Positions 53,095-61,675 of a stretch of DNA of 64,000 nt are shown piece by piece (position 1 is the first letter of the stretch; each line of letters starts with the position of its first letter). The notes beneath the pieces are model-generated. The model made no database searches. It was not told where the DNA came from and saw only the letters and a program-made list of their open reading frames with translations. This stretch comes from a virus, in the IMG/VR virus record IMGVR_UViG_3300032240_001333, positions 17,265 through 81,264 of that record; one strand, written 5' to 3'. The translations under genes and the position numbers were made by a program.

Positions 53095-54393
53095 ATGAGT
53101 AAAAAAGTTGGTAGACATTCACAGTCAGCAAATGACTTTTTAGAACCTAAACCAGTAGTAAATTTAACGGCTACAGACGTTGGAACAAATAGAGCATTTA
53201 ATGACGGTGCAGTAAACCTTTCTTGGGAATTACCAGCAGGTTCACCAGCTGCAACCTCTTACTCAATTATAACAAATCCTAGTACATCAACATATACAAC
53301 ATCTGATACTTCATATCAAGTAACAGGTTTATCATCTAATACATCATATACATTTTTAGTTGCTGGTATAAATGGAGCAGGAACATCTGCTGCAACAGAA
53401 TCTAGCTCTACACTAGTCACTACAGTTCCAGCAGCACCAACTTCTGTAAGTGCATCTTCACCAAATGTTAATCAAGACGTAGTTTCTTGGTCGGCAGGAT
53501 CTTCTGGTGGTAAAAATATTACAAGCTATACTGTAGTTTCATCAGATGGTCCTACATATACAAATCAAACATCACCAGCAACAATTGCAGAAACTGGTGG
53601 AACATCACAGACATATAGTATTTATGCAATTAATGATAATGGAACATCAGCAGCTGCAACAACAGATTCAATAACAACAACAGCACCATTTTTTCCTCCA
53701 TACTTTCCATACTTCCCACCATACTTTCCTTATTTCCCACCATTCTTTCCATATTTCCCATTCTTTCCACCATACTTTCCACCATTTTTCCCATACTTTC
53801 CATTCTTTCCACCATTCTTTCCACCGTTCTTCCCACCATTCTTCCCACCATTCTTCCCACCAAGATTTGGTCCATATTTCGTAGGTAGATGTGTTGATGA
53901 AGACACTTTAATATTAACTAGTAAGGGGTTAGTTCCTGCTAAAAATATACAAATGGGAGACTCACTACTAACTGTTGATATCCAAGCACTAGAATCAGGT
54001 CAAGGTACATTTGATTTAAATACTACAGACTTGAATATCAATACAAATTTTGTAATGACAGAAATTACAAATATAATCGTTGCTCAAAAAGCAGATAGAG
54101 TATATTTTAATAATGACTACGCAAATAAATTTACTGAAACTCATCCAATATTTATAAAGAGAAATTCAGAATACCGTGTAGTAGAAGCAGCAAATGTTGT
54201 AGAAAAAGATATAATTATAATTATAAATCTAGATAAACTACACGAATCAGTTACAACAAAAGAAGCAGTTTCTGAAATAGAAGTAACATCTGTACATAAA
54301 GAAACTTTAGATACTCCAAAAGATGTCTATACCTTCAGTTGTGATCCATATAACTGGTACTTTGCTGGTAATATACTAACTCACAATAAGTAA
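53095..54393 (+). CDS. FN3 x2 + Pro/Phe/Tyr repeat + C-terminal Hint domain protein
   Basis: LSW..P, VTGL..NTSYTF; 59-aa P/F/Y tract; CVDEDTLI...TETHP...ILTHNK. Confidence 0.85.
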   Translation: MSKKVGRHSQSANDFLEPKPVVNLTATDVGTNRAFNDGAVNLSWELPAGSPAATSYSIITNPSTSTYTTSDTSYQVTGLSSNTSYTFLVAGINGAGTSAATESSSTLVTTVPAAPTSVSASSPNVNQDVVSWSAGSSGGKNITSYTVVSSDGPTYTNQTSPATIAETGGTSQTYSIYAINDNGTSAAATTDSITTTAPFFPPYFPYFPPYFPYFPPFFPYFPFFPPYFPPFFPYFPFFPPFFPPFFPPFFPPFFPPRFGPYFVGRCVDEDTLILTSKGLVPAKNIQMGDSLLTVDIQALESGQGTFDLNTTDLNINTNFVMTEITNIIVAQKADRVYFNNDYANKFTETHPIFIKRNSEYRVVEAANVVEKDIIIIINLDKLHESVTTKEAVSEIEVTSVHKETLDTPKDVYTFSCDPYNWYFAGNILTHNK

Positions 54394-54405
54394 TTAATTA
54401 GTCAT

Positions 54406-54431
54406 CAAAACCCCCTCAAAAGGGGGTTTTG
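54406..54431 (+). terminator. Intrinsic terminator
   Basis: AAAACCCCCT-CAAA-AGGGGGTTTT. Confidence 0.75.
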
Positions 54432-54490
54432 GTATTCTTGACAATAATAAATATATTTACTATAATGTATTTCTAAGAGAAAGATATATA

Positions 54491-55198
54491 ATGCAAGATC
54501 ATTATGATATAGATAATAATCCTTGGTTTACAAAAGATAGATCAGAGTCTGCCTCTGTTAGAGTAAATAGATCATTTAAAAATATTAATGTTTCTAATCC
54601 TGGTATTGGATTAAATATTTATGAATCTGCAATTCCTGCTAATATTAGACAAAATGCAATTAAAACATTAGAAGATAAATTAACTAATGGATCTAAATAC
54701 AAGTGGTCAGAAGCACAAGTTACAAATTCTAATAAAGCAATTAAAAGTGCTAGAGATTGTGTTGACTTTAAATTTAAACCAGAAAATTTAGGACCTAGAG
54801 ACGACAATAATTCAGATCTTCTTGATATGCATAAATCAATATATGATATTTTAAAATCATGTGTTGATGATTATTGTCAATATTGGGGAATTAATGTTGT
54901 CTATTATGAAGCATTTAATTTTGTAAAATATACTGGTCCTGGACAACACTTTAGAGTACATGCTGATCATGGTCCAGCATATAACTGTACTGTATCCGCA
55001 GTTATTTATTTAAATGATGATTATGAAGGCGGGGAAATTGCATTTCCTAGACTTGATAAGTTAGTTTATAAGCCAAAAGCTGGCGACATAGCAATTTTTC
55101 CATCAAATTACATATATGAACACTCCTCAGAACCAATGATTTTTGGAGATAAATATTCAGTTGTTGTAATGATGGATATTAATTTATTAGCACACTAA
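54491..55198 (+). CDS. 2OG-Fe(II) oxygenase
   Basis: HAD, YLNDDYEGGE, FPS.Y.YEH. Confidence 0.9.
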   Translation: MQDHYDIDNNPWFTKDRSESASVRVNRSFKNINVSNPGIGLNIYESAIPANIRQNAIKTLEDKLTNGSKYKWSEAQVTNSNKAIKSARDCVDFKFKPENLGPRDDNNSDLLDMHKSIYDILKSCVDDYCQYWGINVVYYEAFNFVKYTGPGQHFRVHADHGPAYNCTVSAVIYLNDDYEGGEIAFPRLDKLVYKPKAGDIAIFPSNYIYEHSSEPMIFGDKYSVVVMMDINLLAH

Positions 55199-55207
55199 GG
55201 AGAAAAA

Positions 55208-59641: not shown

Positions 59642-60230
59642 TCTTCAACAATATGAAAAAATACATTATTATAAAAATGTTATTTCTGAACCAAATAAAT
59701 TAATTGAATTAATTGAATTATCTGATAATAATTTAACAGAAAATTCAAGTATTCCAAAATGGAAAGAATGGTCTGCAAGTGGAGATGTTGCATATTTATT
59801 TGGATATCAAAAAAGATTTAATGATAATGTAGATAAGGATCCAGACTCAGATATTCAAACAATAAATAACACTCTTAAAAGTGCCATTATAAATGCATCA
59901 GAAGATTATGCAAGAGTTCATAATATTAATATTGGTTCTTTAACACCTCTATCTATTAGTAAATATTCAACTGGTAAATCCATGGGGCCTCATGTAGATG
60001 ATTATGGTAACGGCGATGACCCAAATATATCAGTTGTTTTATATCTTAATGATAACTATGAGGGCGGAGAACTATTTTTTAAAGAGCAAGGCATAAAGAT
60101 AAAGCCAGAAGCAGGAAGTATTATTATATTCCCATCAGTAGATCCTTACTATCATGAGTCCCTGCCAGTTATTTCTGGCATCAAGTATATGTGTCCTGGA
60201 TTCTGGCGTAAAACTAACAAGGTGGTATAA
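59634..60230 (+). CDS. 2OG-Fe(II) oxygenase
   Basis: HVD, YLNDNYEGGE, YYHES. Confidence 0.9.
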   Translation: MLNLQQYEKIHYYKNVISEPNKLIELIELSDNNLTENSSIPKWKEWSASGDVAYLFGYQKRFNDNVDKDPDSDIQTINNTLKSAIINASEDYARVHNINIGSLTPLSISKYSTGKSMGPHVDDYGNGDDPNISVVLYLNDNYEGGELFFKEQGIKIKPEAGSIIIFPSVDPYYHESLPVISGIKYMCPGFWRKTNKVV

Positions 60231-60237
60231 TTAAAAA

Positions 60238-61227
60238 ATGGGTTCAACAGGCAAAGGTTTTAGATATCCTCAATACACAGACACACCAGATATTCCAAGA
60301 GATCTTACATATCTAGCTGAGGATGTAGATGCATATTTAGATGCACATCCAGGTCCACAGGGCGAAAAAGGCGACAAGGGTGAAAAAGGTGATATTGGAA
60401 ATGCAGGCCCAGTAAATGTTTTAACATTAGGAACAGTAGCAACTGGTAATGCAGGATCATCTGTTCAAATAACAATAACTGGTACGTCACCATCTCAAAC
60501 AATTAATTTTACAATTCCTCGTGGTGATAAAGGCGATACTGGTGCCACTGGTGCAACAGGTCCACAGGGCGAAAAAGGCGACAAGGGTGATACTGGTGCA
60601 ACTGGCGCAACAGGCGCAACAGGTCTACAAGGTACTGGAGTTAATATTCTTGGATCATACTCATCACTTTCTGCATTACAAACAGCACATCCAACTGGTT
60701 CATTAGGAGATGCGTATTTAATTTCTGGCGCTTTATATGTTTGGTCAGTAAATACATCTTCATGGTTAAATGTTGGAACAGTTCAAGGACCACAAGGACT
60801 AAAAGGCGACAAGGGTGATACTGGAGAAACTGGACCAAAAGGCGATAAAGGAGATACTGGTGCCACTGGTGCCACTGGTGCCACTGGTGCCACTGGTGCA
60901 CAAGGACCAGCAGGACAAGATTTAACCTCAGTATTTACTATTTCTCAAAAATCATCCAATTATACTTTAATATCATCAGACTTAGGTAAGTTAATTGAAA
61001 TGTCTAGTGGGGGAACAATAACAGTACCAACAGATTCTGAAACATTTGCTAATGGATCTACTGTAGATATTATTCAAACTGGATCATCACAAGTTACAAT
61101 TGCAGGAGATTCTAATGTAACAGTAAATGGAACTCCTGGATTAAAATTAAGAGCACAGTGGTCCTCAGCAACATTAATAAAACGAGGTAATAATCTTTGG
61201 GTTTTAACTGGCGATTTGAGTTCTTAA
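60238..61227 (+). CDS. Collagen-like fibre protein
   Basis: Three Gly-X-Y tracts; C-terminal domain paralogous to 50539. Confidence 0.85.
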
Positions 61228-61228
61228 A

Positions 61229-61675
61229 ATGGCAAAAGATCTTGGCAGTAAAAAAGGTACAAGAAAAGTAACTGTACCAAATATCAGTACATTGTCTATT
61301 ACAGATGCAAGAACAGCATTAACAAATATAGAATTAAACTATTCTGATTCTAGTACAACTACTGCAACATCAGGAGATGATGCTAAAGTATTCAGTCAAT
61401 CACCAGCAGCTGGCACAATAGTATTATTAGGAAGTACTGTATCTATAGGTTATTATACATATGTTGCTCCACCATTTTTTCCATATTTTCCATATTTTCC
61501 AAATTTTGGACCATATTTTGCTCCACCATTTTTTCCATATTTTGCATGTAATCCATTACAAGGTACAGGATGTTTAAGAACAGCACCAGGTTCTGGTGGA
61601 AAAACATGCTATTATGATTCTGTATATAATTGTGCAGGAAATTGTGTTGGCGGATCATTATTATTTTGTTTATAA
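61229..61675 (+). CDS. PASTA-like domain + Pro/Phe/Tyr repeat + Cys-rich tip
   Basis: VTVPN...DAR..L...V.SQSPAAG..V..GS.V; PPFFPYFPYFPNFGPYFAPPFFPYF; six Cys. Confidence 0.78.
   Translation: MAKDLGSKKGTRKVTVPNISTLSITDARTALTNIELNYSDSSTTTATSGDDAKVFSQSPAAGTIVLLGSTVSIGYYTYVAPPFFPYFPYFPNFGPYFAPPFFPYFACNPLQGTGCLRTAPGSGGKTCYYDSVYNCAGNCVGGSLLFCL

Follow-up and report, generated by a model that had tools for sequence, protein, structure and literature searches.

The stretch of DNA considered here, referred to throughout as the window, comprises 64,000 nucleotides of a virus (IMG/VR virus record IMGVR_UViG_3300032240_001333, positions 17,265 to 81,264). Between positions 53,095 and 61,675, on the strand shown, it carries a cassette in which two genes for proteins with tracts of Pro, Phe and Tyr (P/F/Y) enclose a row of 2-oxoglutarate (2OG)-Fe(II) oxygenase genes, a pair of genes related to the family DUF6065, here called DA and DB, and a collagen-like fibre gene (Table 1; open reading frames, ORFs, are named by their first nucleotide). 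The cassette is located in a tail-fibre module recognised by PHROG tail-fibre families and an Mtd_N domain. A sequence-only reading had seen in this arrangement a candidate system for virion modification. The analysis described here leads us to propose, with moderate confidence, that the enzymes form a dedicated operon whose predicted chemistry is the hydroxylation of prolines in the repeat linkers of two fibre-associated proteins.

Table 1. Features of the cassette and of its surroundings, numbered from the first nucleotide of the window.
Feature	Positions	Strand	Evidence
Repeat protein 1, 432 aa: basic N-terminal peptide, FN3 domains, P/F/Y tract, FGPYF, Hint	53095..54393	+	Pfam fn3, Intein_splicing; 231 homologues, same layout
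P/F/Y tract, 59 residues (198-256): P-x-F triplets plus extra prolines, 46% Pro	53686..53862	+	Residue scan
Hint (intein-like) domain	53890..54390	+	PF14890, motifs, 2LWY match
Terminator-like hairpin, CCCCT-loop-GGGGG then TTTT	54412..54426	+	Consensus scan only
Sigma-70-type promoter, TTGACA-17-TATAAT	54438..54466	+	Consensus scan, 12/12 matches
Oxygenase 1	54491..55198	+	PF13640 47.8 bits; HAD...H...KY
Oxygenase 2	55208..55867	+	PF13640 51.1 bits; AlphaFold pLDDT 91.8
DUF6065 protein DA, dUTPase-like fold, invariant Cys37	55867..56583	+	PF19541 109.3 bits (cut-off 26.6); model pLDDT 82
Remote DUF6065 paralogue DB	56576..57304	+	hhalign to DA 95.7%, E 8.6e-9
Oxygenase 3	57322..57993	+	PF13640 35.7 bits; HAD...H...RY
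Oxygenase 4 (ATG 57990 overlaps the preceding stop; alternative TTG start 57954)	57990..58802	+	PF13640 39.1 bits; HTD...H...RY
Oxygenase 5, N-terminal CDGSH-type motif	58799..59641	+	PF13640 36.5 bits; zf-CDGSH 27.3 bits
Oxygenase 6	59634..60230	+	PF13640 50.8 bits; HVD...H...KY
Collagen-like fibre protein, shared C-terminal domain	60238..61227	+	PF01391; C-terminal domain common with ORF 50539
Repeat protein 2, 148 aa: basic N-terminal peptide, PASTA, short P/F/Y tracts, Cys-rich tail	61229..61675	+	PF03793
Tail-fibre protein, 847 aa	50539..53082	+	PHROG tail-fibre families; Mtd_N domain
Scattered further oxygenases, including TauD	1101-1736, 3760-4401, 16991-17611, 18533-19324, 19327-19887 (-), 19921-20475, 35643-36509 (-), 41010-41810 (-)		Cluster-built profile, TauD

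The two repeat proteins follow one architecture, in which a basic N-terminal peptide, a binding-type domain (FN3 or PASTA) and a P-x-F linker of about 46% Pro are succeeded by a cap that begins with Cys. The sequence-only reading had reported an unbroken run of 59 P, F or Y residues in ORF 53095, which is exact to the residue, and a shorter tract in ORF 61229, which proves to be a pair of tracts of 11 residues (nucleotides 61469-61501) and 7 residues (nucleotides 61523-61543). The pentapeptide FGPYF is indeed common to both proteins, at nucleotides 53866 and 61505, and no further P/F/Y tract of at least seven residues occurs in the six frames of the window. The DNA repeats that encode the long tract are imperfect (72-87% matches) and its synonymous codons are mixed (CCA 24, CCT 2, CCG 1; TTC 14, TTT 11), and therefore the composition of the tract is maintained at the protein level; the same observations rule out a fresh product of slippage as its origin. 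Two other resemblances were set aside. A comparison with proline-rich antimicrobial peptides such as PR-39 fails because the tract is uncharged; in addition, it consists of P, F and Y only, with none of the Ser-Pro(3-5) motifs that the earlier label of "extensin-like" would require.

A database search returned 231 homologues of the repeat-plus-Hint module, all of them metagenomic or from uncultured phages, with FN3, PASTA or Cys-rich repeats as N-terminal domains and with P/F/Y tracts that range from 17 to 145 residues across family members, so that the tract of the window is no mere coincidence. The N-terminal part of ORF 61229 is orthologous to PASTA-repeat-Hint proteins, but the protein ends in a 43-residue tail with 7 cysteines where the Hint domain would be. 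Since this tail is kept in a relative (L027) whose protein is 73% identical, ORF 61229 is not a wrecked gene, and among the 47 distinct complete cassettes with an upstream P/F/Y gene, 25 have a Hint domain at the end of that gene and 10 a Cys-rich tail, while the other 12 have next to nothing there. The window thus adds a member whose second repeat protein has a Cys-rich tail in place of Hint. There is also a third repeat type, made of P-S/T-F triplets (PSFPSFPTF...) and followed by Hint, which is found in proteins of 640-885 residues (L048:2484-5138, L108, L116, L120, L122 and L123, the first ORF of each) and which in some phages sits a few genes upstream of the PFF-type gene.

Each repeat gene lies directly 3' of a fibre gene, and the two fibre proteins have a C-terminal domain in common: the last ~99 residues of ORF 50539 are 55% identical to the end of ORF 60238 over 99 residues (E 3e-25). 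Because both repeat genes directly follow genes carrying this domain, the arrangement suggests that the repeat proteins work together with it.

On its motifs and on weak profile and structure-sequence matches, the C-terminal domain of ORF 53095 is assigned to the Hint/intein superfamily. It begins with Cys266, its block B reads TETH and it ends His-Asn-Lys-stop; PF14890 aligns over positions 3-155 of 155 with E 2.3e-4 and 21.4 bits, below the cut-off of 35.8, and the nearest solved sequence is 2LWY, a bacterial intein-like domain (E 0.0011). The +1 Cys, Ser or Thr of a C-extein is absent, and therefore the domain would not splice and could only cleave, or transfer what precedes it. Self-cleavage is likely for the copy in the window, judging from these residues, but it does not appear to be a general requirement of the family, because about half of the family's Hint domains are without the block-B His or the terminal Asn. 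Among 192 distinct family domains the first Cys is kept in 188, and it is invariant in the alignment of ORF 53095 homologues, whereas the block-B His is present in ~42% and the terminal His-Asn in ~58%. The sequence-only reading had offered the release of processed PFFP peptides as an alternative. A product of this kind, similar to ribosomally synthesised and post-translationally modified peptides, was rejected: no protease is present, and the sole cleavage device, Hint, cuts after the tract and leaves it on the FN3 domains.

Where a phage has two Hint copies, these come out as sisters on the Hint-domain tree, and therefore repeat type is a trait of the genome rather than of the single gene. 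This close pairing (loci L012, L050, L059 and L061) suggests that the two repeat genes of a phage have evolved in concert or have undergone gene conversion.

All six enzymes that had been read as 2OG-Fe(II) oxygenases are of that class. Their scores against PF13640 (2OG-FeII_Oxy_3) run from 35.7 to 51.1 bits, above the curated cut-off of 27 bits, and the HxD...H...(R/K)Y signature is intact in each, including the basic residue that binds 2OG; H132, D134 and H185 are invariant across 45 aligned oxygenase sequences. The nearest solved sequences are the prolyl 4-hydroxylase (P4H) of Bacillus anthracis (E 2.5e-4) and the collagen lysyl hydroxylase LH3. The AlphaFold model of ORF 55208, with a predicted local distance difference test (pLDDT) score of 91.8, was compared with solved structures by Foldseek, and the matches listed are almost all protein prolyl hydroxylases. 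The top matches among those listed are 4iw3, PHD2, 3gze, 2jig, 6t8m, 5c5t and 7zsc, with E from 6e-11 to 5e-9, and the fold matches include the Pseudomonas enzyme PPHD bound to EF-Tu, an algal P4H bound to (Ser-Pro)5, a Dictyostelium enzyme, vCPH of Paramecium bursaria chlorella virus 1 (PBCV-1) and the human collagen prolyl 4-hydroxylase (C-P4H). The earlier placement in the prolyl-hydroxylase family is thereby borne out, and the oxygenases are assigned to the prolyl-hydroxylase branch, the fold being that of one modelled enzyme (ORF 55208).

Across the PFF-type cassettes compared, oxygenase 2 is 58-87% identical. The order of orthogroups in 47 such cassettes is o0 o0 DA DB (or o0 DB o0 DA), then o2 [o3] o1 [o4] o0, and therefore the oxygenase paralogues are old and distinct. 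One of them departs from the rest at its N-terminus: oxygenase 5 opens with a CDGSH-type motif (CxCGRS..YPYCDxTH, 58799-58870) whose zf-CDGSH score of 27.3 bits is just below the cut-off. The motif is present in 8 of the 51 members of orthogroup o1, where each example listed is a close relative of the window, and it may represent an iron-sulfur module fused to an enzyme of the prolyl-hydroxylase type.

The two genes that had been called DUF6065-like are of unequal standing. ORF 55867 (DA) is a clear Pfam member of DUF6065, whereas ORF 56576 (DB) has no Pfam match and is joined to the family as a remote homologue through its alignment with DA. The best structural matches of the DA model are dUTPases and dCTP deaminases (Z up to 10.4; Foldseek E 1.7e-4), among them human dUTPase with Z 10.4 and a root-mean-square deviation of 3.0 over 111 residues; 14 chains reach Z of at least 8, and sequence identity to dUTPases is 9-17%. 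The fold matches also include pp71 and ORF10 of herpesviruses, which are dUTPase folds without a nucleotide function. A DUF6065 profile search gave 1,831 clusters, and within these the domain is naturally fused to 2OG-FeII_Oxy_3 in both orders (P0182, P0215, P0241 and P0266), to a Stf0 sulfotransferase, to TPR repeats and, by a weak match, to a region like hydroxyproline arabinosyltransferase (HPAT; P0227), the further fusion proteins being P0205, P0157 and P0160; one fusion cluster includes proteins from metagenome-assembled genomes (MAGs) of Planctomycetaceae. These natural fusions place DUF6065 in one pathway with the oxygenases, on grounds that do not depend on the present phage lineage. 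Viral contigs scanned with the DUF6065-oxygenase fusion P0182 gave no match, and no paper naming DUF6065 was found in the literature.

The collagen-like fibre gene of the earlier description is confirmed by a match of ORF 60238 to PF01391, but the idea that the enzymes hydroxylate prolines of its collagen tract did not hold up. Pro stands at X in 6 of its 35 G-x-y triplets and at Y in 0/35, which leaves collagen prolines unsupported as the hydroxylase substrate; in a further ORF (39226-40548), Pro is at Y in 1 of 30 triplets. ORF 60238 is rich in G-x-K triplets, and the lysines of these are a possible side target of the oxygenases. About half of the cassettes have no collagen-like gene.

Because a terminator-like hairpin and a promoter stand between repeat gene 1 and oxygenase 1, the enzymes, together with the collagen-like gene and repeat gene 2, are predicted to be a transcription unit of their own. 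Both promoter hexamers are kept in 10 close relatives despite diverged spacers.

The central evidence for a link between repeats and enzymes comes from the relatives. Loci were sampled from IMG/VR, 73 viral loci from a search with the Hint module and 80 more from a search with DUF6065, of more than 566 relatives. Linkage was counted where 1.5 kb or more of sequence preceded the cluster, as the presence of a P/F/Y-tract gene within four genes upstream, and repeat types were classified by motif. The sequence-only reading had named co-occurrence of P/F/Y tracts with the oxygenase/DUF6065 set across phages as the way to check its proposal, and this co-occurrence is what was found: 87 of 89 loci have a P/F/Y-tract gene upstream of the enzymes, and so do, once duplicates are removed, 47 of 49 distinct complete cassettes. 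It is seen from either starting point, since most P/F/Y-tract loci reached through the Hint module have 5-10 oxygenases, DA and DB directly downstream, and every locus with upstream sequence that was reached through DUF6065 has a P/F/Y-tract gene just before the cluster. Moreover, the cluster occurs at two different genome positions, directly behind a P/F/Y gene each time.

In the two exceptions (L040 and L049) the repeats are Pro-poor and Phe-rich, of the FSFAPV and FGFTP types, and the cluster is reduced and lacks DA. One of the two loci additionally carries a gene of PF11397, the hydroxyproline-GlcNAc-transferase family. Where both Hint proteins of a phage have FGFTP-type repeats there is no cluster at all, and the full cluster is absent from the phages with Pro-poor FGFTP/FSFAP repeats. 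In FGFTP-type loci, one to three paralogues of an unrelated family of ~220 residues stand behind the repeat-Hint gene instead, in 8/8 loci (L017, L029, L040, L049, L059, L061, L067 and L069; for example L029:3064-5056) and in none of the PFF-type loci. This family has the motifs WHEHG and SETGHPH and no match in Pfam; as a lead only, its language-model look-alikes carry 2OG-FeII_Oxy_5. The ORFs behind the FGFTP-type Hint genes were also considered as diverged copies of the cluster and rejected, with hhalign below 1% to the oxygenase, DA and DB profiles.

As an observation on the surroundings of repeat genes in relatives (L017:4436-5720, L040:6244-7017), genes for a GT25-family glycosyltransferase, a methyltransferase and a member of PF11397 (the Skp1 hydroxyproline GlcNAc-transferase family) are found nearby. 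A scan of genome contigs returned seven loci (L160-L166), all the same phage cassette on short lake-MAG contigs of unrelated phyla, the bins being assigned to Acidimicrobiaceae, Flavobacteriales, Luteolibacter, Beijerinckiaceae and Chitinophagaceae; these contigs are probably mis-binned phage DNA.

How, then, might the cassette work? We envision that in the infected cell the oxygenases would hydroxylate prolines of the repeat linkers, with the conserved paralogues perhaps covering different sequence contexts or ring positions, and that the DUF6065 pair would act as a partner in the same pathway. Hydroxylation would stiffen or solubilise a rod resembling polyproline II and might create sites for sugars. 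The Hint domain of ORF 53095 would then cut between Arg265 and Cys266 via a thioester, removing itself and leaving the FN3-repeat part free or transferred to another nucleophile. The earlier suggestion that aromatic residues are hydroxylated was not upheld, in that nothing points to the aromatic rings. Its suggestion that glycosylation follows is plausible on gene content: the three glycosyltransferases claimed for the window are present (34281, 36684 and 43223), but the support is indirect and consists of the PF11397 gene in a relative's cluster and the weak hydroxyproline arabinosyltransferase match in one DUF6065 fusion. On balance, the P/F/Y tracts are the likeliest target of what is a common and unexplained class of phage enzymes.

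Several observations weigh against this proposal and should be set beside it. The link of repeats to enzymes is strong but unproven, because only about three of the evolutionary contrasts are independent: the contigs represent one broad phage lineage with conserved gene order, and on the Hint-domain tree the 3 independent contrasts of repeat type divide into 2 concordant, 1 without difference and 0 opposite (sign test p 0.5). Within the window, at least five further PF13640 oxygenases (seven by the cluster-built profile) and the TauD gene adjoin no repeat gene, and the predicted terminator and separate promoter would stand between the proposed substrate gene and its enzymes. The loss of the block-B His or terminal Asn from about half of the Hint family counts against the cleavage step as a general feature. 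We also know of no prolyl-hydroxylase site in which the proline is flanked by two aromatic residues. Finally, the top fold match hydroxylates EF-Tu, so that host proteins may be the targets, and homologous genes are found apart from repeats. The independence of cluster and repeats had been put forward in advance as the finding that would speak against the proposal, and the evidence on it is divided: a metagenome scan shows solitary DUF6065 genes with neither oxygenases nor Pro-rich genes, and the distant oxygenase array of cyanophage Syn9 has the DUF6065-like gp43 but no nearby Pro-rich repeat gene, whereas in related phages the pairing is nearly constant.

The EF-Tu complex leads directly to the alternative that the oxygenases act on other proteins, either translation factors or ribosomal proteins of the host during takeover, or virion proteins such as the collagen-like fibre with its G-x-K lysines, and that their adjacency to the repeats is inherited gene order. 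In its favour, the modelled enzyme has its best fold match in the EF-Tu complex of Pseudomonas PPHD, the sequence matches include LH3, the collagen-like gene lies inside the operon, other oxygenases lie away from any repeat and the independent contrasts are few. We nevertheless consider this unlikely, since the collagen gene is missing from about half of the cassettes while the P/F/Y gene is present in nearly all, the cluster sits behind a P/F/Y gene at both of its genome positions, and it is lost or replaced where the repeat is poor in Pro. A reading in which the array makes or tailors a small molecule or short peptide as a secondary metabolite has a precedent in Syn9, whose 10 tandem dioxygenases are accompanied by two tryptophan halogenases and a dUTPase-fold protein with a conserved Cys (PMC2938197). 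Syn9 gp43 matches the DB profile with E 5e-13, and five to ten ordered, conserved and distinct enzymes do resemble a pathway. This reading is very doubtful for the window, where every ORF of the cassette is accounted for and none is a peptide synthetase, halogenase, ligase or exporter, where the modelled oxygenase resembles protein prolyl hydroxylases rather than small-molecule oxygenases, and where the cluster co-varies with repeat type.

From the dUTPase-like fold of the DUF6065 pair one might conclude that nucleotides or DNA are the target of the cassette, and the dUTPase and dCTP deaminase matches of DA would allow this. We regard this as scarcely credible, given that the oxygenases are of the PF13640 prolyl-hydroxylase type and not AlkB or TET/JBP, that pp71 and ORF10 show the same fold without a nucleotide function, and that DUF6065 is fused to domains of protein-hydroxylase type and to hydroxyl-modifying domains. 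Hydroxylation of the repeat prolines may also be only part of a larger scheme, in which phages of lake actinobacteria tailor their fibre tips in a modular way and swap repeat chemistry and enzyme set together, pairing P-x-F repeats with prolyl hydroxylases and dUTPase-fold partners and FGFTP repeats with a trio that is possibly of the Oxy_5 type, while the Hint thioester joins the hydroxylated rod covalently to a virion protein or to the host cell wall. This extension is decidedly unlikely as a whole; if true, it would assign the orphan 2OG oxygenases, which are abundant in aquatic phages, to a definite task in virion chemistry.

The source contig is 81 kb long in IMG/VR, with a CheckV completeness estimate of 75%. 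Because it encodes WhiB, its large terminase shares 64% identity with Streptomyces phage terminases (the only INPHARED match for this phage), its G+C content is ~30-40% and its relatives come nearly all from lake metagenomes, the host is most likely a low-GC freshwater actinobacterium. Searches of INPHARED (GenBank phages) by megablast with the region and by tblastn with ORF 53095 and DUF6065 gave 0 matches, and no cultured relative bearing the cassette was found. Two further observations concern the window outside the cassette. The seven additional ORFs that match the 2OG-oxygenase profile built from the cluster, listed in Table 1 with the TauD-family dioxygenase, vary in their relation to PF13640: in one set scanned with Pfam, three of four are above the cut-off and one is below, and two others are without a Pfam match. 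The fibre gene at 47857-50070 contains a 72-nucleotide (24-residue) tandem repeat, in 7.3 copies at 48106-48629 and 2.3 copies at 49495-49659.

Aquatic phages carry many 2OG oxygenases of the prolyl-hydroxylase type whose substrates have been unassigned since the first cyanophage genomes, the proposals being DNA repair, control of 2OG and secondary metabolism. A concrete candidate substrate that is adjacent to the enzymes and co-varies with them makes the substrate question directly testable. If the proposal is true, fibre proteins of a bacterial virus would undergo heavy post-translational hydroxylation, the tracts would be a new kind of Pro-aromatic structural repeat, Hint domains would have a new use in virion proteins, and DUF6065 would have a function. 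We found no description of the cassette in the searchable literature. Nothing relevant was found on PFFP, FFPP or PYFP repeats, a search on Hint domains in phage fibres turned up only terminase inteins, and these genes go unmentioned in a paper on freshwater phages (PMC6802176); the nearest published systems are the hydroxylase and Pro-rich repeats of PBCV-1 and the array of Syn9.

Among known Hint domains, that of the window is closest to the bacterial intein-like (BIL) and Hedgehog types, such as BIL4 of Clostridium thermocellum (2LWY). Both have a Cys1 nucleophile, a TxxH block and a terminal His-Asn, and both are without a homing endonuclease or a +1 nucleophile, so that cleavage or transfer is expected and not splicing. 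The window's domain differs in its place at the extreme C-terminus, one Lys before the stop, and always after an aromatic repeat; many members of the phage family have lost the block-B His or terminal Asn, and orthologues of the phage repeat protein have a Cys-rich tail or nothing in its stead. With respect to the enzymes, T4-like cyanophages also have many PF13640-type oxygenase genes per genome, their substrate unassigned, and for these multi-copy genes a part in DNA repair or in 2OG levels has been considered (Sullivan et al. 2010, PMC3037559). No candidate protein substrate was put forward there, whereas here one lies next to the enzymes and co-varies with them.

The tandem array gp41-gp54 of Syn9, for which secondary-metabolite synthesis was proposed (Iyer, Abhiman, de Souza, Aravind 2010, PMC2938197), is closer in organisation. 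Like the cassette, it combines many distinct 2OG dioxygenases in one operon with a dUTPase-fold protein in which a Cys is conserved, it lies just after tail-fibre genes, and its gp43 matches the DA profile (E 2.5e-7) as well as the DB profile. The two tryptophan halogenases and a JmjC-type enzyme are found in Syn9 only, there being no tryptophan halogenase or JmjC/MINA-type member among ORFs 54491 to 61675, all of which are accounted for. Only gp50 of the array matches the oxygenase profile built from the window, and no Pro-rich or aromatic repeat protein is encoded near it.

The closest parallel to the proposed chemistry is in PBCV-1, whose prolyl 4-hydroxylase reportedly acts on the (Pro-Ala-Pro-Lys)n repeats of the virus's own proteins (Eriksson et al. 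1999). There, as here, a virus encodes a 2OG oxygenase of prolyl-hydroxylase fold (vCPH, 5c5t, among the fold matches of ORF 55208) together with Pro-rich repeat proteins. PBCV-1 has one such enzyme, whereas the cassettes described here have six to ten conserved paralogues and two dUTPase-fold partners; its repeat is Pro-Ala-Pro-Lys, whereas here it is P-x-F, aromatic and uncharged; and here the host is bacterial and the genes for the enzymes and their candidate substrate are adjacent.

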